A DNA stretch of 64,000 nucleotides, taken from an uncultured Gemmataceae bacterium. GTDB taxonomy: Bacteria; Planctomycetota; Planctomycetia; Gemmatales; Gemmataceae. The notes under the pieces are model-generated. The model worked only from the letters and a program-made list of their open reading frames with translations. It searched no databases and was not told the DNA's origin. The translations under genes were made by a program, and so were the position numbers. Positions within the stretch are counted from its first letter, which is position 1. Each line of letters starts with the position of its first letter. This document shows, piece after piece, positions 190-26,266 of the stretch. The stretch is from positions 2,368,001-2,432,000 of the forward strand of contig CAVVPN010000003.1 in the NCBI GenBank assembly GCA_963750165.1, in the 5' to 3' direction.

Positions 190-332
190 TGTGGAAAACC
201 TGTCGCGCCAGGGTCGGTGGTCTGTTGCGTACTGTTGTCGGCGCCAGTCGTTTACTGACCGTGCAGCTTTCCGGAGCTATCCCATCACCGCTTCTGAACC
301 ACGGCGCGACTGGGCGCGACAGGTTTTCCACC
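190..332. promoter_or_regulatory. Candidate oriC: 19-bp perfect inverted repeat overlapping DnaA boxes, next to an AT-rich tract (~60-130)
   Basis: GTGGAAAACCTGTCGCGCC (191-209) / GGCGCGACAGGTTTTCCAC (313-331). TTTTCCACA on the minus strand at 190-198 fits TTWTNCACA. Lies directly downstream of dnaA. Confidence 0.5.
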
Positions 333-355
333 ATGGTGCAGGCGGTCCGCCTGCA

Positions 356-1351
356 TTACGAAAGCTCCGCCTGCAAGCGCCGGACAGCGCCGGACAGCGC
401 CGCATCCTGTTCCAGGGCTCGCTCCACCTTGCGACAGGCGTGCAGCACCGTCGTGTGATCGCGGCCGCCGAAGTACGCACCGATCTGCCCCAGCGACAGG
501 CCCGTCAGCTGGCGGGCCAGGTACATGCCGACCTGCCGCGGCACCAGCACACCCCGATAGCGCCGGCGCGATTGCAGCTGCCGCGGTTCCACCCGGAAGT
601 AACCGCCCACGCGCTGGGCGATGCGCTCCATTGTGATGCGGCCGGCGTCAGCCTGTTCGCGGAAGTGGCCGGCCACCGCGGCCACGTCCGGCGCCGGCCC
701 GGGCTGTCGCAGCAGCGCTTCCAGGTTCGTCAGGGCGCCGTCCAGCTGGCGGGCGCCGCCGGGCAGATGGTCCGCCAGCCAGGTCAGCACTTCCGGGGCG
801 ACGGCCAGGCCGCGCTCCTCGGCGCGGCGGCGCAGGACGGCCAGCCGGCTGGCGGCGGACAGCGGCGTCAGGGCGACAGTCAGGCCCGCGGCCAGGCGGC
901 TCGTCAGCCGGGCCGGCAGCGGTTCGCCGCGGTGCGTCAGTTGGGCCGGCCCGGTCAGGGCCGTCAGCACCACCTGCCGCTGTCGCGTCACGGCGTCATC
1001 GATCAACCGCACGAGCACCTCGGCCGCTCCGGGTGCCAGGTGTTGCACGTCCTCGACCACGATCAGGTCGGCGTCCTGGCCGGGCGTCGGCGCGTCGGCG
1101 GCGGGATGCAGGTCAGCGGCCGCCAGCGCATGGACAACCAGCGCCGGACAATCCCGCGTCAGTTCCTCGATCAGGGCGGACACCAGATGCGTTTTGCCGC
1201 TGCCGGTGGGGCCGTGCAGAAGCAGCGGATTGTGACGGCGACGCGGGCGCTGTTGGCGAACGCACTCCAGCACGTCTCGAACCGCCACGAACGCCGCACG
1301 GGTTTCCGCGACAGCCACGAAGCGTGCGAAGCTCAGTGCGGGCCGGTGCAT
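356..1351 (-). CDS. dnaA: DnaA-family replication initiator lacking N-terminal domain I
   Basis: NPLLLHGPTGSGKT Walker A, VEDVQ Walker B, RLTSRL..GL, domain IV signature IG.YFGGRDHTTVLHAC. Confidence 0.9.
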   Translation of the reverse strand: MHRPALSFARFVAVAETRAAFVAVRDVLECVRQQRPRRRHNPLLLHGPTGSGKTHLVSALIEELTRDCPALVVHALAAADLHPAADAPTPGQDADLIVVEDVQHLAPGAAEVLVRLIDDAVTRQRQVVLTALTGPAQLTHRGEPLPARLTSRLAAGLTVALTPLSAASRLAVLRRRAEERGLAVAPEVLTWLADHLPGGARQLDGALTNLEALLRQPGPAPDVAAVAGHFREQADAGRITMERIAQRVGGYFRVEPRQLQSRRRYRGVLVPRQVGMYLARQLTGLSLGQIGAYFGGRDHTTVLHACRKVERALEQDAALSGAVRRLQAELS

Positions 1352-1656
1352 GGTTCCGGTAGTTCCCTCCCCGCACCAGGCGGTAGTGTGGGACTGGTTC
1401 TAAATTTCGGCCAGAAAACCGGTTGCGAGTACCGCGACGCCACGGGCCGGTGCGCCCGTCGTCTAAAGCATTGTATCCGAAAGGCGGCGCGGGGTAAAGC
1501 ACAATCGGCCCCAGGATGGCGCGACGTAAGTGCTTGAAAGAATGTGAGATCGGATTGAAAATTGGGAGGAGAGTTGGGGCACGGAGCCGGGTGCGGTATC
1601 GGTCCTGTGCGACCGACCGCGCCCGGCTCCGTGCGCCGGTGCTTGCAATTCGGAAG

Positions 1657-3874
1657 TCATTTCCCCTGTTTCGGTTGCGTCTGATGGTAGCGCGACACAC
1701 CGAGGCGTTCGCGCACCTGCTGCATGACACTGTCGGGCATGAGGCGTGTCCACAGCGCACTGGGGGATTCCACGGCCGAGGTCGATAACGCCAGCACGCG
1801 CCGCCGCTGGACTGGGTCGAACTTGCAGGCGGCGATGATGCCGGCCGGCCAGACACCCTGGTCGCTCACGGCGATGAACAGGTTCGGTAACTCCTTTTCG
1901 TGCTTGCCCTCGTAGAGGTACACGTCGAACGGCCCGTGGGCGCCGAAGACGGGTACGACAGGCAAGTTCTCGACGTAGTTGCTGACGCGCGTGGGCCGCA
2001 CTGCCTCGGTTTGCAGCAGGGCCTGGCTGGGGCGCAGGCTGACCGCGGCCAAAACGGAACCGTCCGCCAATGGCGCACCGACCAGACCGGTCATGCTGGT
2101 GGCGGCGGCCGGCCGCGCCAGGACGCGCCCGACAGCAACCCGGGCGGCCACAGCGGCGCCAGGCGGGCCTGGTAGATCAGCAGCGGCTTGAGCCAGTTGC
2201 CGTGGTGCTCGTGGGACAGTCGCGTGTACTTCAACTGCAGTTCGTAGGTGTCTTCCTGGATGGTGCCTGCCTTGAGGAACTTCGGGTGTTGCAGCAGGAT
2301 GTCGAGCCAGGCGAGCAGGGCGTTTTTGTAGTTGGTCAGGGTCCGCGGGTTGACGATGTTGGCGGCCCCCTTGCGGGCGCGGAACAGATCGTAGCGGGCC
2401 TTGACCGTTTCCGGCAACATCTCTACCTCGGACTGGTCGAGGAAGGCGTCAATGTTAGTCATCGTCTTGTAGTGCCTGAACCACTGCAGTTTTTCCGCCT
2501 CGGGTGACTTCGCACCCTTGAGCGCCGCCTGGTGTTCCAGATCCTTGATTTCTTCTGGTTCCAGATACAGGCCGTTTTGGCGGGCGTATTCCTTGTACTC
2601 GCTGTAGCCCTGAGCCCAGGCCAGCCTGGACTGGTAACGGCCCGCGCCGACGAGCACATCGGTTTTCACGTTCCCCTCGTCGGGTTCGGTGCCGAAGAAC
2701 TTGCGAATCGACCAGCCCTCGCCGCCGAACCAACCTTCCGTCTGGAGCTGCTCGGCGTAGTAGACCTCGGCGCGGGCGGGGTAGCTGCGGAAGATCGATA
2801 TCGCCATGCGCGGCATACGGTAGCGAGCCGGGTCGTATTCCAGTTTGTCGATGCGGGGGTTGCCGTTCGGCGGCGGCAGCGGCTGCTGGGCGTAGATGTA
2901 CCAGGCGCGGACGATTTGAAACACGTCCACGTCGTCGCCCTCGAAGTTGCGGCTCTCGGGGTTGGGGCAATAGGGCTTCACCTCGGCAAACTTTTCCGGC
3001 AGCACGGGGAACTGCGCCTGCGGTTCGAGCAGCGGCACCGTCTCCTGCGGATTGGTCAGCTTCTCGAAGCGCGAGGGCAGGTCACGGTTCTCTTGCAGGA
3101 AACCAACGACCTTGGTGGCGGTGCCATAGTTTTTCAGGCGCTCTTGAAGGCGGCGCACGAAGCGTGGATATTTAGTGCAGAAATCAATGAAGCGTTTGGT
3201 GTTGACCTTCTTGCCCTGGGCGCCGGCGGCCCACAGGCTCTCGGGGTAGCGGTCGGCCGGGTCCATCATGCTCATGTCGAGCAGGCACTGCATGACGTTC
3301 TGGTCGTCGCTCTGGCCGATCTTGAGCTGGTAGGTGAAACCGATGTGGTAGCGCATCTCCGGGTTGGCGGGCGAGCGCAGTTCGGGGTTGGGATGGTCGT
3401 TGCCCTTGTTGCGGCGCTCGCCCTCGGCAAGTAACTCGATACCGCGGGTCACGAAATAATATTTGTCCTTGGGCTTGTCGCACTCGACGGCGACGTTGAA
3501 GGACAGGTTCCAGCTCTGGAACAGCCAGGGCGTGATGAAGTGCGGTTGCAGCTTGGTGAGCGAGCGGACGATGCTTTCGAGTTCGTTGTACTCGTGTTTC
3601 TTCTGTTTCTCGATGGCGGACAGCCACAGATAGGTGACGGCGATGCCGCGCAGCCCGGACGCGACCAGGCGCAGGGCTGAGCCGGTCAGTTCCGGTTCGC
3701 CCTGATCGACCTCGCGCAGCGCAGGTTTTCCGCCTGCTTGTTGATCGACGGGGAGTCCGCTCCCAGCGCCACCCGGCCGCGCAGGAACAGCGACACCGTG
3801 AACAGCACCAGGATCAAACCAAAATACACAAACTTGCGCGTCAGCGATTGCTGCTGGAATTTGTTTTGTGCCAT
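1657..3874 (-). CDS. Large membrane-anchored conserved protein of the ABC operon; two apparent frameshifts (~3720, ~2150)
   Basis: MAQNKFQQQSLTRKFVYFGLILVLF (TM) continues after a shift into LREVDQGEPELTGSALRL..LQPHFITPWLFQSWNLSFNVAVE, joins ORF 2091-3452, then ORF 1657-2151. Confidence 0.65.
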
Positions 3875-3892
3875 TTCATCCTCCTTCGGAGG

Positions 3893-4008
3893 AGTCATTA
3901 GTCATTAGTCATTAGTCATTAGTTTTCTGGGTCGCAGATCAAAGCAAAAGTTTAGGTGCTCGGCTGCGACCCAGAAAACTAATGACTAATGACTAATGAC
4001 TAATGACT
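3893..4008. repeat. Perfect 45-bp inverted repeat built from 4x AGTCATT heptamer, 26-nt loop
   Basis: (AGTCATT)4-AGTTTTCTGGGTCGCAG 3893-3937 / CTGCGACCCAGAAAACT-(AATGACT)4 3964-4008. Confidence 0.95.
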
Positions 4009-6014
4009 ACGTGGGATTCGCGATCTCGCGGGACTTCATCAGGTAATAGCCGAGGATGCCGCAGGGCACCAGGTACGCCAGCAGCGGCAGCAGATTGTCC
4101 AGGAACAGCACCTGCATGAGCGAAATGTCGAAGCCGTTGGACACGTAGATCGCCAGGTCATAGCGCGTCACGTCCGGAATGACGCGCATCAGCAACTTGA
4201 GCAGCCAGCGGTACGAATCGTCAAAGGCGACAATGACGCCGTACTGTCCGGTTGACTTGTCCAGCGGCGCGTTGATGTTCTGACGGTTCCACAGCCGCAC
4301 CATTGAGCCCATCGGGCCGCCCTCACGGCCGCCCTCCGTCCGCCCCTCCGCCAGCGAGCGGATGTAGTCCGAGAACAGGCCGGCGCCGCACAAAAAGCCG
4401 GTCGCCAGAAAAGCGATGATGCCGCTCAGGTACGTGCTGGCGATCACCGCGATGCCCAGCACCAGACACGCCCCCAGCCAGATCGCCACCGCGCCCTTCA
4501 GGAAGTTGATCCAGAACGGATAGTCGCCCTCCAGCAAGTACAGGTCGCGGCGCGCGACGCCGATCATCTGCGTGCTACTGCCCGGCGTCCGCTCCACGTT
4601 GATGAGCACCTGCATGGCCGGCGGCTTCTTGCCGTTTTCACCGGGACTGAGCCGGGCCGCGTCCTCGCGCAGCTTCTTGAAAATGGCCGCCGGCACCCGC
4701 AGCTTCTGCGTGTGGTAGTCGGTCACCTCGACGCCGCCCATTTGATAGACGCCGTACTTGTTCAGCAGCTGCAGGTCCGTCTCGTTCAGGCCCTCCGCCG
4801 GCGCCTCGGCCGCTGGCTTCTTCCGGGGGCCTTCCTTCTGGTGCGCTTTCAGCAGTTCAATGCGCTCGTCGCTGGACTGGTCCAACGCCTTCTTCACGGC
4901 GGGCACCGACAGACTGACCGGGCGCGAACGTGAAGGTGCAGAAAACGCCCTGGGCCTCGATGCCCTTGGTGGTGCGGAAGATGTCGAAGGTGAACTCCAG
5001 GTCCACCGGTTCGGTGCGGTCGCTCAGCGCCGCCGGCAGCTCGTCGAAGATCCAGATGGCGTACTGCGTTCCCTGGCGCTCGGAGAACAGGCCGGGGCCG
5101 GCGATGTAACTGCGGTAGTCCCATTCACGGCCGACGCTCTCGCCGCGGGTGTCGCGGGTGGTGCCGTGGAACGTGAGGTTGTTGGCGAACAGCGGCACCC
5201 GGGCGTGATAGCTTTCCGCCGCCGCCTCCGGCGAGACGCCGCGCAGCACATAGAACAGGCTCAGCAGCGTCACCGCCGCCAGTTCGGCGAGCAGCAGCAG
5301 GGCGTAGCCGGTGAAGCGGCCCAGGACGATCTCGTAGCGCTGCACCGGCTTGGTGACGATGGTGTGAATGGTCTGGTTCTTGACATCGGCGGGAATGCTG
5401 AACGAGCCGAGCAGTACCGCGGTGATGATGAACAGCAGTGACATCGCGAAGTAGGCGACACCAACACGGGTGCGCAGCTGATCCTCGGCCTTGCCGGTGA
5501 TGTACCAGTCGGCGTACAGGTAGATGATTGGGATGACCAGGCAGATGGCCCAGATGCGCAGCCGCCAGGCTTCCTTGAGGCTGACGCTGGCCAGGGCCCA
5601 GATACGGCGGCCGACCAGGCGATGCGCGAACACGTCGAGCAGGATCGGCAGCGTGACGGCGAACAGGGCCAGGCCGCCGCCGAGCGTCAGAAAGAGGGCC
5701 TGGGCGAAGGTGTAATGGAGGGTGGGCGGCAGACGCGGCTCGGGGTTGGGCACCGCGATCAGCGGCTGCGAGAAGAACAGCACGATGAAGATCGCGTAGC
5801 TGACGGCACTGAGGCTGGCGGCGGCGAAGACGAAGCGCTTGGTGGCGCTCCATTCGGGGTCGATCCAGGCGGGTCGCTGCAGGTAGTAGGCCAGGCCCAC
5901 GATGACCAGGGCGATGGCCGCCAGGGCGCCGGCGTCCTGCAGCCAGCCGGCCAGCGCCGTGGGCAACAGCGCCCATTCCAGCTGCGGTCGTTCGATAATC
6001 AGGCTGGCAAACAT
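4007..6014 (-). CDS. ABC-2 type transporter permease, frameshift near 4905
   Basis: Multiple TM helices and the SIPADVKNQTIHTIVTKPVQRYEIVLGRF motif; ORFs 4857-6014 and 4007-4906 join. Confidence 0.8.
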
Positions 6015-6102
6015 GGCGTTCGTCGATCCTGGGTAGAACGGGATGAATCAGGGAAATCGGTCTTTCCGCCGCTTGCAGCTCAGAGTCACCGGACAACACT
6101 CT

Positions 6103-6247
6103 GTGGTCGCAGGCTTTAGCGCGGTTTGCAGGTGCGTGTAGCATGTAGTAGGTCCGGCGAGCCGAGCCGGACCCGCAGCGGGTGCCGCTCGGCTCGCGGC
6201 ACCTACCCCAGACCGCTACACCCAACCGCAATCCGCTTTAGCCTGCG
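6103..6247. repeat. Nested REP / TA-flanked MITE / inner REP pair
   Basis: GTGGTCGCAGGCTTTA|insert|GCCTGCG. Insert 6119-6240 has imperfect terminal IRs and contains a GTAG-type REP pair at 6148-6206. Confidence 0.7.
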
Positions 6248-6249
6248 TA

Positions 6250-7398
6250 TTACCCCGGCACGAAATAAGATCAAATCAATTCTACCGGGGCAGCGTACCG
6301 AGTCCACGGATGTAGAAAGTAACTTATCACATGATCCGGCACCCGAACCAAGCGTTTCATGAAGTCCAACAACCGGCCCTGCAACGTCGGCCGGTCGGGC
6401 GGCAGGCCCGCCTCGTTCACCGTACCCTTCATGTCGTTGTTCAAATACTCCACTGGGTTCAACTCCGGCGAATACGCCGGCAGATAAAACACCTCGATCT
6501 GGTCCCGGTGCGCCTCCACCCAGGCCTGTACCGCCGGCGTCTTGTGGGCTTGCAGCCGATCCGCGATCAGCAGCATCTTCCGCGTCGCCCCTGCGATCAG
6601 CTTGGTCAAGAACATCAGGAACACCGCCGCGTCGAGCGCGCCCTGGTAAGTCATGAACCGTACCGTCCCCTCGTTGCTGATGGCCGAAATCTGGTTGACC
6701 CGGAGGTGGGGCTTAGGCACCTCCATCGTCGCGCGTGCTCCGAGGCGGGCGTAGCCGTAACCGGGGTGGTGATCGGCCGCCACGCCGACCTCATCGGTCC
6801 ACAGAATTTCCGCCTGCTCGCGCTCAGCCTGGGCTTCGATGGCGGGGTAGGTTTCCAGCAACCACTCCTCGACCGCGTCGGGATCCTGCTGCCGCGCGTG
6901 CCGGCTCGGTTTCTTGGAGGTGTAACCCCAGCGGCGCAAGTACGCGCCGACGGTGCGCTCGGCCAGGTCGATGCCGAACTCCTGGCGGATCAGGTCGCGC
7001 ACGGCGCGGCGCGTCCACAAGGCGTGCGGGATGCCCACTTCCTCCGGGGAGTGCAGGTCGATGCACGCCCGGATGCGCTCGGCCTGCGGGTCGGACAAGT
7101 AGCGCCCGGAACCGAGCGGCCGGCCGCTGCGACCGCCGGGCAGGGCAGACAGGCCGTCGGCGACGTAGGCCGTCCACCAGCGACTGATGGTTTCGTGGCA
7201 GACGCCCAGGAGTTCGGCGAGATCCAACTCGGAGTAGCCCAACTCGATCCCCCGTAAGGCGCGCAGACGCAGCACCTGGAGGGCTTCATCCGACAACTGG
7301 CGGGCGTCAGGTAACTGGATGGACATGAGCAGTCTCCGTCTCGGAGTGTCGCGGTTATTCTCCCAACGGACTTTTGAGCAACTTTCATGCCGTGGTAA
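6250..7398 (-). mobile_element. IS630-family insertion sequence
   Basis: TIRs TTACCCCGGCACGAAA / TTTCATGCCGTGGTAA (14/16), TA on both flanks (6248-49, 7399-7400). Confidence 0.92.
6271..7326 (-). CDS. IS630 transposase
   Basis: N-terminal HTH and winged helix, WTDE, IADRLQAH, LPAYSPELNPVEYL motifs. Confidence 0.95.
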   Translation of the reverse strand: MSIQLPDARQLSDEALQVLRLRALRGIELGYSELDLAELLGVCHETISRWWTAYVADGLSALPGGRSGRPLGSGRYLSDPQAERIRACIDLHSPEEVGIPHALWTRRAVRDLIRQEFGIDLAERTVGAYLRRWGYTSKKPSRHARQQDPDAVEEWLLETYPAIEAQAEREQAEILWTDEVGVAADHHPGYGYARLGARATMEVPKPHLRVNQISAISNEGTVRFMTYQGALDAAVFLMFLTKLIAGATRKMLLIADRLQAHKTPAVQAWVEAHRDQIEVFYLPAYSPELNPVEYLNNDMKGTVNEAGLPPDRPTLQGRLLDFMKRLVRVPDHVISYFLHPWTRYAAPVELI

Positions 7399-7476: not shown

Positions 7477-8454
7477 TCAACTGCCCACGTCGGTCACATG
7501 TTCGGAGCGCTCCTTGCCGTCGCCTGTGGCGGCCGGCGGTGACGGCGGCGCGGCCTGGCGCTGGCCCTCGGGCAGATAACGGCGGCCGGGGTGGGCCTTG
7601 CTCTGCTGCACGATGTGCAGGAACAGATCCTCCAGCGTCGTCGTCGGATGCCCCAGGAACTCCAGCTTGCCGCCGTGCCGCGCCAGCACCTCTTCCAGGT
7701 CGCGGCGCAGTTCGTCGTTGATCTGCACCCCGCTGGCCCGCAGTTCCAGCCGCTGCACATCCTCCAGCAGCGTCTTGACGCTGCCCATTTCCTGCAATTC
7801 GCCCTCGTTCAGGATGGCGATGCGGTCGCAGATGTCCTGCACGTCCTCCAGACGGTGGCTGCACATGATGACCGTCTTGCCCAGGTTGCGCAGATCCACG
7901 ATCTTGTCCTTCATCCAGCGTGTGCCGAGCGGATCGAGGCCGCTGGTCGGCTCGTCGAGGATGACGAGTTCGGGATCGTTGATGAGGGCCTGGGCGAAGC
8001 CGATGCGCTGTCGCATGCCCTTGGAGTATTCGCGGAGGATGCGCTTCTTGTCGGCGCTGAGGCCGACCATGTCGATGAGCTTCTGAGAGCGGGCGCGGCG
8101 CTCGGCGGGCGGCAGGTTGAACAGGCTGCCGTAGAAGTCGAGCGTCTCCTCGGCGGTGAGGAAGCGATACAGATACGACTCCTCGGGCAGGTAGCCGATG
8201 CGCTCGTTTTTCTTGACATCGGCGGCGGGCTGGCCGAACAGGTACGCCTCGCCCTCGGTGGGGAAGAGTAGACCGAGCAGCAGCTTGATGGTGGTGGTCT
8301 TGCCGGAGCCGTTGGGCCCGAGCAGGCCGAAAATCTCGCCGCGACGGATTTCCAGGTTGAGGGCGCGCAGGGCGACCTTCTTCTGCCGTCCCCAGAAGTC
8401 GCGGTAGACCTTGGTGAGCTTGCGTGTCTCGACCAGGACGTTGGAATCACTCAT
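7477..8454 (-). CDS. ABC transporter ATP-binding protein
   Basis: [17 protein letters not shown] signature, [11 protein letters not shown]-loop. Confidence 0.95.
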
Positions 8455-22007: not shown

Positions 22008-22232
22008 GGCAGGGCCTCTGGCGGGTCCGGGGTGCGCAGGGGCGACGGCGTTAATTAACGGAAACCGTGGCCGCGCAACCAGAGGGCAGGCGGCCCGAAT
22101 TCCAGGTCCGCTTTCCGGGCGCGTCTGCCTATAATGGAGGTAGCGGCAGGAGGCCGTTTCATCTCATATCATCTCACAGACCCCCCCGAACGGGCTTTGC
22201 GACGCATTCGGATAAACGCATGGGAATGCGTA

Positions 22233-23486
22233 TCAGTTAGACCGAATGCGTTGCATCGGCAGCACGTCCGGCCGCACAGCCGGTTCCGCTTCATCTTTCC
22301 AGAAGACGGGCACGATGCCAAGGGTTTCCTGCTCCTGAATCAGACAGGTGAGATTATGGCAGAGGATTTTGCAGAGCGATTCATTGATCATACCAGTGTC
22401 GCTCTTGCTGCGCACCGAGTCGCCGAACTTCCGCTTGATGGCGCTGAAGGTGGACTCGACGTTGCTTCGCTTGTGATAGTGCCGCAAAAACTCCTCGCGC
22501 TGGAACTGGAAGAAGTGGAAGGCGCGCTCGAACTGGCCGCCGACGGCGCCGGTGGCGTTGCTCTTGAACGGGATGAACGCCGCGGCGCCGCACGCGGCGA
22601 TTTCCTCAAAGTTCTCCAGCGACGCATACGCCTTGTCGGCCGACACCTCCCCGATCTCAAAGCGCCGCCGCGTCTCCTTCACCAGCGGCACGAACTGCGG
22701 ACAATCCCCGGAGTCTTTGTCCAGAATACGGACAGCGGTGACGATGTTCGTCTTCACGCCGCACGCCAGGTGGACTTTCACCCACACGCACCTGTTGCGG
22801 GTGATGCCATACTTCTCGTCCAGCCATTTTTCGTAGCGGCAGCTGCCGAAGCCGCTGCTGTCGATGGCGAAGTCCGTCTCGACCACGCGGAGCGGGCTGG
22901 CGCTGATGGCGATGAGTTCCTTGAGGATCGGCGTGAAGAAAGCATCCTCGAAAAAACTGTTCACCTTCATGCCAGGGATGGGCTTGGTGGTGTGGCCGCG
23001 CTCGTGCGCGTCGAGCAGGTCGCAGGAGAAGCGCCGCGAGGACAGGCCGCAGTAGACCTTGAAGGCCATCGCAAACACGGCGTCGCGGCTCAGGTGTGGC
23101 TTGGGGCCGGGCAGGCTGCTGGAGCGATCGCGGTCGGGCAGGCGACTGCACAGGTCCGCGAGCAGCACTTGCAGGCGGCGCTTCTCCGTGGCTTGCGCCC
23201 TGTTGAACGCCGGCCAGTCTTGCGCGTACGTCTTGCGGACGGGGATAACGTCGGTGTCGATGGCCGGGGCTTGCTCGCCGCCGTCGCGCTCGCAGGCCAG
23301 TTTCGCGGCGATGACGTGCTTGCACGGTTTGCCGGTCAGGCCGAAGTCTTCGCAGGTGCAGCCGGGCGGGATGATCGTGACTCGGTATTTGGTGGTAAGG
23401 CTGGTCTGGGAAGGAACAACCCAGGCGCTGCCGTCGTAGACGATTTTTGCACGCGCCGCGATCTCCAGGGCCTTCAGTTCACGCAT
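22233..23486 (-). CDS. SWIM zinc finger plus DDE transposase (DDE_Tnp_1, IS4/IS5-like)
   Basis: CTCEDF...CKH SWIM; AIDSSGF, VKVHLA, SADKAY, YHKRSNVESTFS. Confidence 0.9.
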   Translation of the reverse strand: MRELKALEIAARAKIVYDGSAWVVPSQTSLTTKYRVTIIPPGCTCEDFGLTGKPCKHVIAAKLACERDGGEQAPAIDTDVIPVRKTYAQDWPAFNRAQATEKRRLQVLLADLCSRLPDRDRSSSLPGPKPHLSRDAVFAMAFKVYCGLSSRRFSCDLLDAHERGHTTKPIPGMKVNSFFEDAFFTPILKELIAISASPLRVVETDFAIDSSGFGSCRYEKWLDEKYGITRNRCVWVKVHLACGVKTNIVTAVRILDKDSGDCPQFVPLVKETRRRFEIGEVSADKAYASLENFEEIAACGAAAFIPFKSNATGAVGGQFERAFHFFQFQREEFLRHYHKRSNVESTFSAIKRKFGDSVRSKSDTGMINESLCKILCHNLTCLIQEQETLGIVPVFWKDEAEPAVRPDVLPMQRIRSN

Positions 23487-23859
23487 ATCCACGTCGCCAC
23501 CCTGCCTCTCGGAAGGCGCGCACGTAGAATGGAGTTGAGGGCCGCATTCGGGCGTGCAAGCGCCGGAGTGTTGTCCGCTCCAGGGGCTGTTACTAGCAGT
23601 CCCTGGAGCATCATTTCTCCGCACGATAGTACGCAATTTATCTCCACAAGTACAGGTCAGCAGTGGACTTACGAATATTTTTCCGCTGCGGAAAAACGGT
23701 CGGTTGCGCAGAAGCACGTCAGGGGCGCGTCAGGATGAGGCAGGAGCGCAGAAGGCGCCGTCTACGACCAACCGGGCGGTCTGGGGCCGGATCGCGTCGG
23801 GGGCGTTTCTGGGAAGCCGTCTGGAAAATCTGACAAGCAGCGACAACAATAGAAAAAGG

Positions 23860-23946
23860 TGGGGGTGGGGGGACTCGAACCCCCAAATGGTGAAACACCA
23901 CGGCGGGTTGGGAACCCGCTGCGTTTTCCAGTTTCGCCACACCCCC
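23860..23946 (-). tRNA. Non-canonical class II tRNA: Leu-type body with anticodon CCC (Gly)
   Basis: GGGGGTG TG GCG-AAACTGGAAAA-CGC A GCGGG-TTCCCAA-CCCGC, long V-arm, GGGGG-TTCGAGT-CCCCC CACCCCC A; all stems fully paired. Confidence 0.88.
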
Positions 23947-23958
23947 GCAGGCTGTTGC

Positions 23959-24030
23959 AGACGCGGACCCGAGTTGAACGGGCTTTCTGGACTTTGCCAA
24001 GTTCCCCGAGAAACCGTCCTCCCCCGCGTC
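23959..24030 (-). ncRNA. tRNA-like element with irregular anticodon arm
   Basis: Acceptor GACGCGG/CCGCGTC plus T discriminator, T-arm GCCCG-TTCAACT-CGGGT, D-arm GAGG-ACGGTT-TCTC; anticodon arm GGAACTTGGCAAAGTCC pairs only with a bulge. Confidence 0.6.
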
Positions 24031-24277
24031 GTTTGCTACAGCATGTTGGCTGGTCGGGCAGGAGTTACCGACTCCTGCCCGATCGCCAGCCTTCACCGGT
24101 TTTTCCCAGCCCTCCCAGGTTTGATCGGGTTGACTTTTGGCCTACGGATGGGTATCTCCCCATCCGCTGTCGGACATTTCCAGCAATGTCCGACGCACGC
24201 CACGCAGACAGATCATCGACGAAAGCAAAACCTAACTTTAGGGACAACCCCCTTACCGTCAGACAGGAGAGACGGCA

Positions 24278-24624
24278 ATGACCAAGCTGCGCAGAAGGGC
24301 CACGCGACTCGCCCCGTGTCCTTCAGGATGCCCGTTGGTGTGTACGACGACTTCGTTTCGGTTGCAGAAACGAGGGGCGTGGATGTGTCGGGCTTGCTGA
24401 ATTGGATGTGCGCCGAGTACCGCCCCACGCTCTTGAAAAAGAAGGCGGATTACGAAGCCGCCATGCTGGAGGCTGCGGCGGCAAGCCTGCGCGAAAACCT
24501 GGCTTCACCCGGGGAAAGCCGCAAGGCGCTTGGCGTGCTGCGCGACCTGCTCAAACAGCTTCAGGATATGTACGCGGCTCTGTCGAAGCGGGCTCTCGAC
24601 GAGGACGAAAGACGGGCCGGGTGA
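24278..24624 (+). CDS. Ribbon-helix-helix-like DNA-binding protein; probable 1-nt indel near 24295, otherwise in-frame ATG at 24328
   Basis: RPVSFRMPVGVYDDFVSVAETRGVDVSGLLNWMCAEY beta-alpha-G-alpha pattern; SD GGAG before ATG 24278. Confidence 0.55.
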
Positions 24625-24705
24625 CAGGGGACTGCGCGCCCCTTTCGGTCGGGCATTATTCATTCATCATCAACGACCGGGAGTGCGCGAACACGGCTGA
24701 ACACG

Positions 24706-24746
24706 AAACGCCACCAACCAAGGCGCCTTGGTTGGTGGCGTTTTTT
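24706..24746 (+). terminator. 38-bp perfect palindrome followed by a T run
   Basis: AAACGCCACCAACCAAGGCGCCTTGGTTGGTGGCGTTTTTT. Confidence 0.75.
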
Positions 24747-24903
24747 CATTGGATCGAATGCGTCGCAACTCGCCCGAATGCGTCACAACCGGCGAATGCG
24801 TGGCAAAGCCCCCCGAACGACCGGGGGAGACCGGAGAATCCCTGTTCTCACCCTGGCCGGACGACCGTAAAGCAAGGACTTTGACTGCCACTGGAGGACT
24901 GCG

Positions 24904-26048
24904 ATGCTGGAAACCACCCGCCTGCTCCGCGACCTGGTGGCCCTGCCGAGCGTCAACCCGATGGGCCGCACCGGCCCCAACCCCGACTTCTTCGAGCACC
25001 GCGTCACCGCCTACCTGGAAGCGTTCTTCCGCGACCTCGGCGTGTCCTGTGAGCGGCAGACGGTGGCGCCGTCGCGCGACAACATCATCGCGCGCTGCGT
25101 GCTGCCGGGGCGCGGCGGACGCTGCTGCTCGAAGCCCACCAGGACACGGTGCCGACCGATAACATGACCATCGAACCGTTCGGGGCGAAGATCGACGGCA
25201 ACCGCCTGTACGGCCGCGGCGCCTGCGACATCAAGGGCGGCCTGGCGGCCATGCTGGCGGCGTTCGCGCGTGTGGCCCGCGAGAAGCCGGCAGGTGCCGC
25301 CAACGTCGTGCTGGCCTGCACCGTGGACGAGGAGTACACGTTTCTCGGCGTGCAGCGCCTGGTGCGCGACGGCCTGAAGGCGGACGCAGCCGTCGTCGCC
25401 GAGCCGACCGACCTCAACATCGTCCATGCCCACAAGGGCGTCGTCCGCTGGGACATCGTCACGACGGGTCGTTCGTGTCACAGTTCGCGGCCCGAGCAGG
25501 GCCAAAACGCTATCTACTTCATGGGCCGCGTGCTGACCGCCCTGGAGCAGTACGCCGGGCAGCTGCACCAGTCGCGGCAGCATCCGCTGCTGGGCCGGCC
25601 GACCCTGAGCGTTGGCCGCGTCGAGGGTGGCACCAGCGTTAACACGGTGCCGGATCGCTGCCGCATCGAGATCGACCGCCGGCTGATCCCGGGCGAGGAG
25701 CCGCTGGCGGCGCAGCAGGACGTGACGCAGTTCTTGCAGGGCCGGCTGGGGCCGGACGTGCCGTTTACATGTGTGCCGCCGTGGATGAGCAAGGGCGCCC
25801 TGAACCCGGAGGGCTCCGAGGCGCTGGTGCAGGAATTCGGCGCCGTGATCGACGCCGTGCGCGGCCGGCACACCGTCGAGGCGGTGCCGTTCGGCACCGA
25901 CGCCTCCAACATCGCCGCGGCGGGCGTGCCGGCCATCGTGTTCGGCCCCGGTGACATCGGCAAGGCCCACACCTGCGACGAGTGGGTGCCGCTCGATGAA
26001 GTCGAGACGGCCAGTGAGATCCTGTTTCGCTGGCTCTGCCAGGGTTGA
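24904..26048 (+). CDS. M20 family metallopeptidase (ArgE/DapE-like), frameshift ~25110
   Basis: LVALPSVNP; EAHQDTVP after the shift; YGRGACDIKGG, VDEE, AEPT, GTDA, AHTCDEW. Confidence 0.9.
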
Positions 26049-26079
26049 TACGGAATCGCCTTGGCGGTTCTTGTTTCTG

Positions 26080-26140
26080 GTCGGAGCCCGAGCGCCAGTG
26101 AGGGGCAGGCTTTGCCCCGCGCTGGCGCTCGGGCTCCGAC
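26080..26140. repeat. REP palindrome family GAGCCCGAGCGCCAG
   Basis: Related copies at 28997-29056 and 34407-34452, partial at ~33338-33350. Confidence 0.85.
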
Positions 26141-26168
26141 TTGACGGCCGCGCCGGGTCATCTATCAT
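26141..26168 (+). promoter_or_regulatory. Sigma70-like promoter for tRNA-Glu
   Basis: TTGACG-16 bp-TATCAT, 25 nt before the tRNA. Confidence 0.6.
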
Positions 26169-26193: not shown

Positions 26194-26266
26194 GGCCCCG
26201 TCGTCTAGAGGCCCAGGACAGCGGCTTTTCACGCCGCCAACACGGGTTCGAATCCCGTCGGGGTCA
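26194..26266 (+). tRNA. tRNA-Glu(TTC)
   Basis: GGCCCCG acceptor, GCGGC-TT TTC AC-GCCGC anticodon arm, GGTTCGAATCC; CCA not encoded. Confidence 0.95.

Follow-up and report, generated by a model that had tools for sequence, protein, structure and literature searches.

A tRNA-bearing IS5-like insertion sequence in a Gemmataceae bacterium and a possible role of its passengers in mis-decoding

A stretch of 64,000 nucleotides from an uncultured Gemmataceae bacterium (assembly GCA_963750165.1, contig CAVVPN010000003.1, positions 2,368,001 to 2,432,000 of the forward strand; hereafter, the window) contains a 2,618-bp insertion sequence (IS, window 22193-24810) that encloses two tandem tRNA-shaped genes along with its transposase gene. 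One of these is a class II tRNA with a leucine-type body and the glycine anticodon CCC, and the other, denoted tRNA-X, has an acceptor like that of a cysteine tRNA and an irregular anticodon arm. This unit, intact and inserted recently, belongs to an IS5-like lineage of insertion sequences and is very probably a true tRNA-cargo IS: both tRNA genes lie within its inverted ends and target duplication, as anticipated in the original prediction, which had described them as cargo of an IS-sized element with a DDE transposase.

Reading of the sequence and a repeat finder gave the same boundaries, upholding the earlier claim of a 2618-bp unit delimited by terminal inverted repeats and a target-site duplication. 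The inverted ends are 18 nt long with 17 of the 18 positions matching (19 nt with 95% complementarity according to the repeat finder), and an exact 9-bp direct repeat, CCCCGAACG, is present on both sides (Table 1). Each end also contains three short GAATGCGT-type subterminal repeats, which extend to ~22251 at the transposase-downstream end; at the transposase-upstream end, three CGAATGCGT subterminal repeats (24755-24801) precede the inverted repeat. The element is inserted in the hairpin loop of a leader-like repeat, the parts of which are a TATAAT box, the conserved stretch CATCTCACAGACCCCCC, a hairpin formed by a C-run and a G-run, and GATTCCCTA. That the insertion is genuine is shown by the left flank, one copy of the duplication and the right flank, which together rebuild this repeat of ~100 nt; five uninterrupted copies of it, i.e. 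paralogous empty sites, are found elsewhere in the same genome. These paralogous copies stood in for the empty site of relatives, which the original prediction had proposed to look for: the flanking genes were not syntenic in the 40 related genomes searched. With the interrupted copy included, the leader-like repeat occurs at least 6 times in the genome; Rfam gave no match to it over the stretch that was searched. A single copy of the element was found in the 9.6-Mb genome. From the one DNA sequencing run used, only two short contigs were obtained, both within the transposase gene.

The class II tRNA scores 57.3 bits with the Rfam tRNA model (gathering score 29) and is labeled 'tRNA-Gly(ccc)', 89 nt, by ARAGORN. 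It forms a canonical cloverleaf with a 3-bp D stem, a 7-nt anticodon loop (UUCCCAA) and an 18-nt variable arm, and is followed by CC and then a T-run (23847-23857). Three features of tRNA-Leu are present, namely the variable arm, A73 and the D arm, and only the leucine anticodon is missing; the D arm and A73 match those of the host tRNA-Leu genes, and the D arm is unlike those of the host Ser and Tyr tRNAs. The identity set of tRNA-Gly comprises U73, a C2:G71 acceptor pair and a short variable loop, whereas the class II tRNA has A73, G2:C71 and the 18-nt variable arm. The host possesses an ordinary tRNA-Gly(CCC) of its own, a 73-nt class I gene (G000:C1:387556-387628), and the best identity of the cargo tRNAs to any host tRNA is 68%. 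Thus, to judge by its sequence features, the class II tRNA is Leu-like in its body only, with a glycine anticodon, and annotation calls of 'tRNA-Gly(CCC)' of this kind should not be taken for ordinary glycine tRNAs. In the Leu-type trio that it forms with homologues carrying the anticodons UUA and UCC, all 75 of 75 cells are paired, and compensatory pairs number 10 of 25, with 2 of them in the anticodon stem and others in the variable arm, a level that none of 500 shuffles reached. Such compensatory changes show that the tRNA shape is under selection.

In tandem with the class II tRNA and 12 bases upstream of it, tRNA-X was missed by both ARAGORN and Rfam. Its acceptor stem is 7 bp long, its D arm contains GG and its T arm is normal; the anticodon arm has a weak stem and the loop UUGGCAA, in which the nominal anticodon is GGC and the triplet at positions 35-37 is GCA. 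A covariance model (R1) built from tRNA-X and one homologue was run on 151 same-family genomes and gave five clear relatives (63-98 bits); matches below ~52 bits were ordinary tRNA-Cys genes and were left out of the count. These weaker matches are of the type GACGCYGG...U73 with the anticodon GCA, a likeness by which tRNA-X is evidently derived from tRNA-Cys. The loop reads YYNGCAA in 6 of the 6 tRNA-X sequences, with GGC, CGC or UGC as the nominal anticodon and GCA at 35-37, and pairing reaches 97-100% in the acceptor, D and T helices. Nine of the 20 pairs are changed on both sides, which was matched in none of 500 shuffles. Because the homologues show compensatory changes, comparative analysis indicates that tRNA-X is a real gene despite its absence from the output of both programs; minimum free energy folding of tRNA-X alone was no better than that of shuffles, i.e. 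the support is comparative only. In this genome, R1 found no second copy of tRNA-X, and the host tRNA-Cys genes differ from it; therefore, the gene arrived with the element. The claim that two tandem tRNA-shaped genes lie upstream of the transposase gene, in the same orientation, is confirmed.

The arrangement recurs in the lineage. Among 33 same-family transposase loci of a first batch (ARAGORN was run on all, Rfam on part), 5 have an odd, co-oriented tRNA upstream of the transposase gene, as do 3 of the 40 loci in a second batch, for a total of 8 of 73 (Table 1); the distance between the tRNA and the transposase start is 299-454 nt, and the anticodons are UUA, UCC, CCC, GCU, UAG and CGC. In addition, locus L083 contains tRNA-X 126 nt upstream of a transposase that is 50% identical. 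The suggested search of homologous elements for tRNA genes with varying anticodons thus gave a positive result. Locus L098, which merely adjoins an ordinary host tRNA-Ser, was not counted. The ends of four tRNA-bearing relatives could be mapped (L134, L135, L137 and L083), and in each, inverted ends of the GGCTTTG type enclose the tRNA and are accompanied by exact 9-bp duplications; the ends were not mappable for L133, L136, L154, L161 and L175. Across the cargo, the anticodon loops have U33 in 9 of the 10 readable cases and A at both 37 and 38 in 10 of 10, the bodies are Leu-, Ser-, Cys- or Sec-like, and the anticodons are those of Gly, Ala, Ser or Leu, or match a stop. By R1, tRNA-X was not found in 42, 28 and 40 further transposase loci. 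In genome G016, tRNA-X is followed, 4 nt on, by a Ser-like class II tRNA with the anticodon CCG, on a contig that stops just past a ribbon-helix-helix (RHH) gene similar in kind to those found ahead of the transposase elsewhere in the lineage.

Several further odd tRNAs and associated genes were observed in these loci. L133 contains a second class II tRNA (8003-8096, + strand; anticodon GCC, U73, GACG... acceptor), which is divergent from the UUA tRNA and ~500 nt from it; a coiled-coil/winged-helix-like open reading frame (ORF) between the two resembles a 158-aa ORF beside the tRNA pair in L052. In L038, a Ser-like class II tRNA with the anticodon UAU and an unusual T loop (7197-7289; Rfam, 48.8 bits) lies outside the mapped ends, 2.3 kb beyond the end of a related 4.2-kb element. 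On the metagenome contig L032, 22 tRNA genes (240-6556) flank a transposase homologue. A conserved ORF of ~265 aa with no Pfam match is divergent from tRNA-X in two genera (L083, 4302-5099, - strand; L084, 5839-6627, - strand). The gene after tRNA-X in L084 is an IS1-type transposase, and the ORFs after tRNA-X in L085 and L086 have N-termini reminiscent of primase or replication proteins from phages or plasmids.

Comparison with relatives that lack tRNA genes locates the cargo within the element. L005, a 71%-identical relative, is a plain IS of 1.59 kb with the same ends, 278 bp between its end and the transposase start, and no slot content. Relatives present in identical multiple copies are mobile units of 2.7-3.8 kb with GGCTTTGC ends, a 9-bp duplication being visible in one, and with passengers of various kinds (Table 1); a SocA/Panacea pair is a further passenger of sister elements. 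Overall, GGCTTTGC ends and 9-bp duplications were found in six relatives. The window element and the multi-copy relative G246u are homologous at the end, in the small ORF, and in the last ~300 nt before the transposase, whereas between these parts, the window has the tRNAs and G246u an unrelated 122-aa ORF. Homology thus extends everywhere but the tRNA region; therefore, by this alignment, the lineage keeps a passenger slot between the upstream end and the transposase leader, and the tRNAs fill it. As in other passenger-carrying IS, the tRNAs and the RHH-like ORF are inside the ends, and the multi-copy relatives move with their passengers. The int-alpA RNA motif (Rfam, 43-55 bits, gathering score 35.8) is present in three related elements, upstream of the transposase and co-oriented with it, a hint that the passenger region carries other structured RNAs as well.

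The transposase, the start codon of which was set by alignment, scores 75 bits with DDE_Tnp_1 (PF01609, cut-off 23) and 35.3 bits with SWIM. The best NCBIfam model is NF033579 (IS5), at 107.8 bits, which is under the cut-off of 140. There are 6,693 homologues at E<=0.001 among 8,000 scored, and of 252 genomes from this bacterial family, 65 contain the transposase at E<=1e-60. As in the IS5 family, the transposase is of the DDE_Tnp_1 type and the ends are inverted and accompanied by a target duplication of fixed length; the threshold of the curated model is not reached, and on these scores, the element is classified as IS5-like, in a separate SWIM-bearing lineage. The transposase leader (~300 nt) is well kept in the tRNA-less G246u (alignment columns ~1180-1455), and because of this conservation, the transposase is probably driven by its own promoter; a simple scan found no sigma-70 consensus promoter. 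Co-transcription of the tRNAs with the transposase, initially suggested, is disfavored by the T-run after the second tRNA and by the same conserved leader.

Some further possibilities were considered and rejected. Recoding of the transposase by its own tRNA is not indicated: aligned with its two GGG codons, the homologues have Gly or Ala and in no case Leu. Programmed read-through of stops by suppressor cargo is contradicted by the different TAG positions (239 and 147) in the two loci where they were located; in-frame stops occur in the transposases of several relatives and look like ordinary inactivating mutations. Nor does the anticodon seem to guide target-site choice, given that the plain tRNA-less relative L005 is likewise inserted in a C-run.

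Between the tRNA pair and the upstream end, two further hairpins at about 24147-24196 accompany the long hairpin listed in Table 1, and together (24049-24196), they are candidate operator or leader structures; a comparable hairpin lies ahead of tRNA-X in L083. The divergent small ORF beyond them has no Pfam or NCBIfam match. Its family comprises 54 homologues of ~115 aa, none with a Pfam match and most on contigs of 1-3 kb, as would be expected of insertion-sequence pieces, and a homologous gene occupies the same place in G246u. In the family alignment, a conserved strand (VSFRMP) precedes two helices, and an AlphaFold model (mean pLDDT 78) is beta-alpha-alpha-like with the expected helices present. 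Foldseek found no match at E<=0.001, the top weak matches being Arc, CopG, MazE, ParD and other RHH proteins; the label 'RHH-like' is reasonable but not proven. Of the contents originally ascribed to the unit, the transposase, tRNA genes, hairpin and terminator all stand, and the RHH-like gene is present but with an apparent -1 frameshift.

Table 1 Features of the element in the window (window coordinates unless a locus is named) and of related loci.
Feature	Position	Strand	Basis or remark
Target-site duplication, left copy (CCCCGAACG)	22184..22192	.	In hairpin loop of leader-like repeat
Terminal inverted repeat, transposase-downstream end, begins GGCTTTGC	22193..22210	.	Repeat finder; GGCTTTGC ends also in relatives
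Transposase, 417 aa, N-terminal SWIM zinc finger and DDE_Tnp_1 catalytic domain (IS5-like)	22233..23486	-	Pfam
Transposase leader, candidate site of own promoter	23487..23800	-	Conservation with tRNA-less G246u
Class II tRNA, long variable arm, A73, Leu-type D arm, anticodon CCC (Gly)	23860..23946	-	Rfam, ARAGORN
tRNA-X, 72-nt tRNA-shaped gene, Cys-tRNA-like acceptor (GACGCGG...), U73	23959..24030	-	Covariance-model homologues
Long hairpin/palindrome ~20 nt upstream of tRNA-X	24049..24092	.	Repeat finder
Divergent small ORF, conserved IS-associated RHH-like family	24316..24624	+	Family alignment, structure model
Perfect palindrome and T-run, intrinsic-terminator-like	24706..24748	+	22-nt arms, 100% complementary; after small ORF
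Terminal inverted repeat, transposase-upstream end	24793..24810	.	Aligns with L005 and L051 ends
Target-site duplication, right copy (CCCCGAACG)	24811..24819	.	Direct reading, repeat finder, paralogues
Leader-like repeat, interrupted copy	22127-22192 plus 24811-24850		Upstream of M20 peptidase gene
Leader-like repeat, paralogues	G000:C4:56570-56629, C3:61138-61194, C11:153382-153442, C4:483795-483850, C3:1404113-1404169		
L090/L133, Leu-type class II tRNA			Anticodon UUA; D and T arms nearly those of the window tRNA
L092/L134, Leu-type class II tRNA			Anticodon UCC
L104/L135, class I tRNA			Anticodon GCU
L105/L136, class I tRNA			Anticodon CCC, C33
L118/L137, irregular tRNA			
L154, tRNA			Anticodon GCU
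L161, tRNA			Anticodon UAG, G73; Rfam tRNA-Sec model 54.5 vs 47 bits
L175, tRNA			Anticodon CGC; GCA shifted here too
G246u, 2.7-kb unit			Small divergent ORF homologous to that of the window
Multi-copy relative, 3.4-kb unit			RelE-like/helix-turn-helix pair; Pfam
Multi-copy relative, 3.8-kb unit			GmrSD restriction enzyme; Pfam
int-alpA motif	L105 351-419 (= L136 4562-4630); L159 4295-4362; L170 2048-2115		

As for function, we give about an even chance to the possibility that the two genes form an expressed, aminoacylatable, mis-decoding tRNA cassette carried by a mobile IS. The cassette and the RHH-like gene point away from each other on either side of a palindrome-rich 250-nt region, and the cassette would be a transcription unit of its own, starting near the palindromic region 24049-24196, to which the divergently encoded RHH-like protein may bind, and ending where a T-run follows the second tRNA; the two RNAs would be freed by RNase P and 3' trimming. 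In its structure, the class II tRNA bears all the marks of a working tRNA. Bacterial leucyl-tRNA synthetase disregards the anticodon. Because the marks recognized by this enzyme are present (A73, Leu-type D arm, long variable arm) and the anticodon is ignored, the class II tRNA would be expected to be charged with leucine, and its canonical anticodon loop could read GGG, resulting in low-level Gly-to-Leu missense translation; the chance that this tRNA acts in translation, we put at even or slightly lower. In tRNA-X, the elbow and U73 are kept and GCA is displaced by one base, such that it may be charged but is probably a poor decoder. The cassette would then be a mobile, anticodon-swappable mis-decoding module, carried as sister elements carry toxin-antitoxin or restriction genes. 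A broader proposal, that the IS lineage spreads active, aminoacylatable, anticodon-swapped tRNAs, whether as codon-reassigning or missense/nonsense-suppressing cassettes by which the proteome of the host is remodeled when needed or as antidotes to tRNA-targeting toxins, with the anticodon as the fast-evolving determinant and the RHH protein as the switch, is possible but rather doubtful.

Several observations weigh against a mis-decoding cassette. The amino-acid identity of the class II tRNA is ambiguous, its acceptor and T arms resembling those of the host tRNA-Ala(GGC), albeit without G3:U70, and its UUA and UCC homologues bear Gly-like GCG acceptor stems. Across the six tRNA-X sequences, the anticodon helix is only 66.7% paired. 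In a crude count over 1,414 long ORFs, GGG makes up ~14.8% of the Gly codons (13.5 per 1,000 codons) and the most frequent Ala codon (57.9 per 1,000) is GCC, which tRNA-X would nominally read; therefore, efficient mis-decoding would be very costly. The transposase itself shows no clear avoidance of these codons (2 GGG among 24 Gly codons; 19 GCC among 39 Ala codons). Alignment of the small ORF with its homologues indicates an apparent -1 frameshift past about codon 10, and the N-terminus that corresponds to theirs starts, in the -1 frame, at an ATG (24278) that has a good ribosome-binding site; either the gene is frameshifted or there is an assembly indel. Most copies of the IS family have no tRNA (65 of 73 loci), and no tRNA was found in the upstream position in any of 38 more distant loci from metagenomes and genomes. 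Finally, irregular tRNAs with a comparably shifted triplet were charged but did not decode in Escherichia coli, and six allo-tRNA(UAU) variants were inactive (PMC5389517).

Some of these points fit an alternative under which the RNAs, although produced and possibly charged, are non-decoding tRNA mimics that serve as decoys, sponges or antidotes for tRNA-directed enzymes, i.e. a defense or counter-defense passenger; among the enzymes envisaged are anticodon nucleases such as PIN/VapC toxins, GNAT toxins acting on aminoacyl-tRNA by acetylation, and toxins of the nucleotidyltransferase type. Sister elements carry GmrSD, a RelE-like/helix-turn-helix pair or a SocA/Panacea pair in or around the slot, an ORF in L051 reads like a PIN fragment (albeit with no NCBIfam match), and small RHH genes beside tRNAs elsewhere weakly match antitoxin and regulator families of the TacA-like or NikA-like type, one of them reaching the TacA1 cut-off (21.8 vs 21 bits). 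The varying anticodons on a constant scaffold look as if the loop were the recognition site of a partner, tRNA-X retains the acceptor, T and D helices but not the anticodon stem, and irregular tRNAs beside toxin-antitoxin genes that are charged and unused in translation have been described (PMC5389517). Nevertheless, the element in the window contains no gene for a tRNA-targeting toxin, and the class II tRNA looks like a complete decoder, in which the canonical T loop and D loop along with A73 would be needless for a decoy. Overall, we consider this explanation unlikely.

We rate as improbable, below the decoy explanation, the possibility that the tRNAs, placed between passenger slot and transposase, serve the element itself as RNA-processing or insulation signals that end or cut upstream transcripts (via RNase P and RNase Z) and block read-through into the transposase, leaving the anticodons to drift. 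It would account for the fixed position and orientation (all 10 cases are co-oriented with the transposase gene, 126-454 nt ahead of its start), for the T-run or terminator hairpin after the tRNA, for the uncoupling of the anticodon from amino-acid identity, and for the conservation of tRNA-X only in the parts required by RNase P (acceptor, T arm and elbow). However, the anticodon and variable arms of the class II cargo, not needed for insulation, are perfectly paired with compensatory changes, a plain terminator would suffice, and the 65 of 73 tRNA-less loci count against this explanation as well. That nothing here is functional, the tRNAs being host genes or pseudogenes picked up by chance, or lying beside the insertion, and now decaying, is very improbable indeed. 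The single copy of the element in the genome, the frameshifts in both the RHH-like gene and the neighboring M20 gene, the degenerate anticodon stem of tRNA-X, and the mere adjacency of L098 to a host tRNA-Ser are in line with such chance cargo. The tRNAs, however, lie inside the inverted ends and are not copies of the genome's own tRNAs, as attested by the best identity and the differing tRNA-Cys genes given above; moreover, their structure is kept by compensatory change across genera, and the arrangement recurs with transposases that are only ~50% identical.

Passenger-carrying IS ('transporter IS') are known from the IS903-like group of the IS5 family. The element shares with these a single DDE_Tnp_1 transposase, short inverted repeats, a 9-bp duplication and unrelated genes inside the ends; unlike IS5-family elements, it has an added N-terminal SWIM finger, a score under the NCBIfam IS5 cut-off and only 23-27% transposase identity to the nearest annotated plasmid genes ('IS5 family transposase'), and its passengers are tRNA genes. 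No IS with tRNA passengers was found in the open-access literature, with subscription journals and supplements outside the search, and to this extent, the original statement that no such cargo was recognized stands; it must be qualified in that odd tRNAs near a transposon-related ORF are already on record (PMC5389517).

The latter work, by Mukai et al. (2017), described polycistrons of irregular tRNAs and allo-tRNAs near toxin-antitoxin genes and a transposon-related ORF and suggested a link to transposable elements (PMC5389517); insertion of Ser in E. coli has been reported for allo-tRNAs that bear non-serine anticodons (PMC7609411, PMC5389517). In common with those polycistrons, the window has tandem odd tRNAs with non-cognate anticodons, separated by a 12-nt spacer, and a shifted triplet at 35-37 (GUG in the tRNA(GGU) of Mukai et al., GCA in 6 of 6 tRNA-X sequences); the sister element L161 passes the Rfam tRNA-Sec model, as allo-tRNAs would. 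The differences are that allo-tRNAs have a 12-bp acceptor branch (8/4 or 9/3), whereas both window tRNAs fit the 7/5 layout (an 8/4 reading may apply to some tRNA-X members), that the class II member in the window is Leu-type (A73) unlike Ser-type allo-tRNAs, and that the sequences of Mukai et al. are probably acidobacterial, whereas the present element comes from another phylum and, unlike that context, is a fully delimited mobile element. Two other systems are similar in the working that they suggest. The nematode nev-tRNA-Gly(CCC) and nev-tRNA-Ile(UAU) are class II tRNAs with CCC and UAU anticodons that are leucylated in vitro (PMC3333845, PMC4300185); the class II Leu-type body with CCC is shared with the window tRNA and, by analogy, the predicted chemistry would be the same, but the nev-tRNAs are eukaryotic nuclear genes, not on a transposon and of independent origin, so that the resemblance is one of working rather than membership. 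For Streptomyces tRNA-ProX/ProRSx, a mismatch between tRNA anticodon and amino-acid identity has been described and deliberate mistranslation proposed (PMC10404621). Like the window tRNAs, these are natural bacterial tRNAs with an anticodon at odds with identity; however, that system has a dedicated synthetase gene, whereas the window element has none and the carrier is an IS. The word stems 'transpos' and 'mobile' are absent from the text of PMC10404621.

What is new, then, is a delimited mobile IS5-like lineage with mismatched tRNAs as a recurrent passenger, along with a Leu-type CCC tRNA in bacteria and the Cys-derived tRNA-X family. Metagenomes have yielded tRNAs with mismatched bodies and anticodons since 2017, but neither their genetic context nor their function was defined; they now have a context, as recurrent passengers of a delimited, still-mobile IS family that otherwise carries defense and toxin-antitoxin genes. 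The charging, decoding and beneficiary of the odd tRNAs become directly testable on one 2.6-kb unit, and the family offers a natural series with the same tRNA scaffold and different anticodons. If the tRNAs decode, the smallest mobile elements would be spreading genetic-code ambiguity horizontally; otherwise, the tRNAs would represent a new class of tRNA-mimic regulators or decoys.

Downstream of the insertion, an M20/ArgE-type peptidase gene (window 24904-26048, + strand) lies in two frames, with the split near 25100-25125, and is either a pseudogene or affected by an assembly indel; taken together, this split and the frameshift in the RHH-like ORF hint at assembly indel errors. A long GC-rich hairpin (window 26076-26144) with only spurious microRNA-family matches in Rfam is located just upstream of a tRNA-Glu gene (26194-26266). 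Outside the window, 16 tRNA genes, several of them unusual short Leu tRNAs, are packed within 1.6 kb of the same genome (G000:C10:88560-90125), and a second tRNA cluster is found at C11:2270561-2271064; both clusters may be mobile tRNA arrays.

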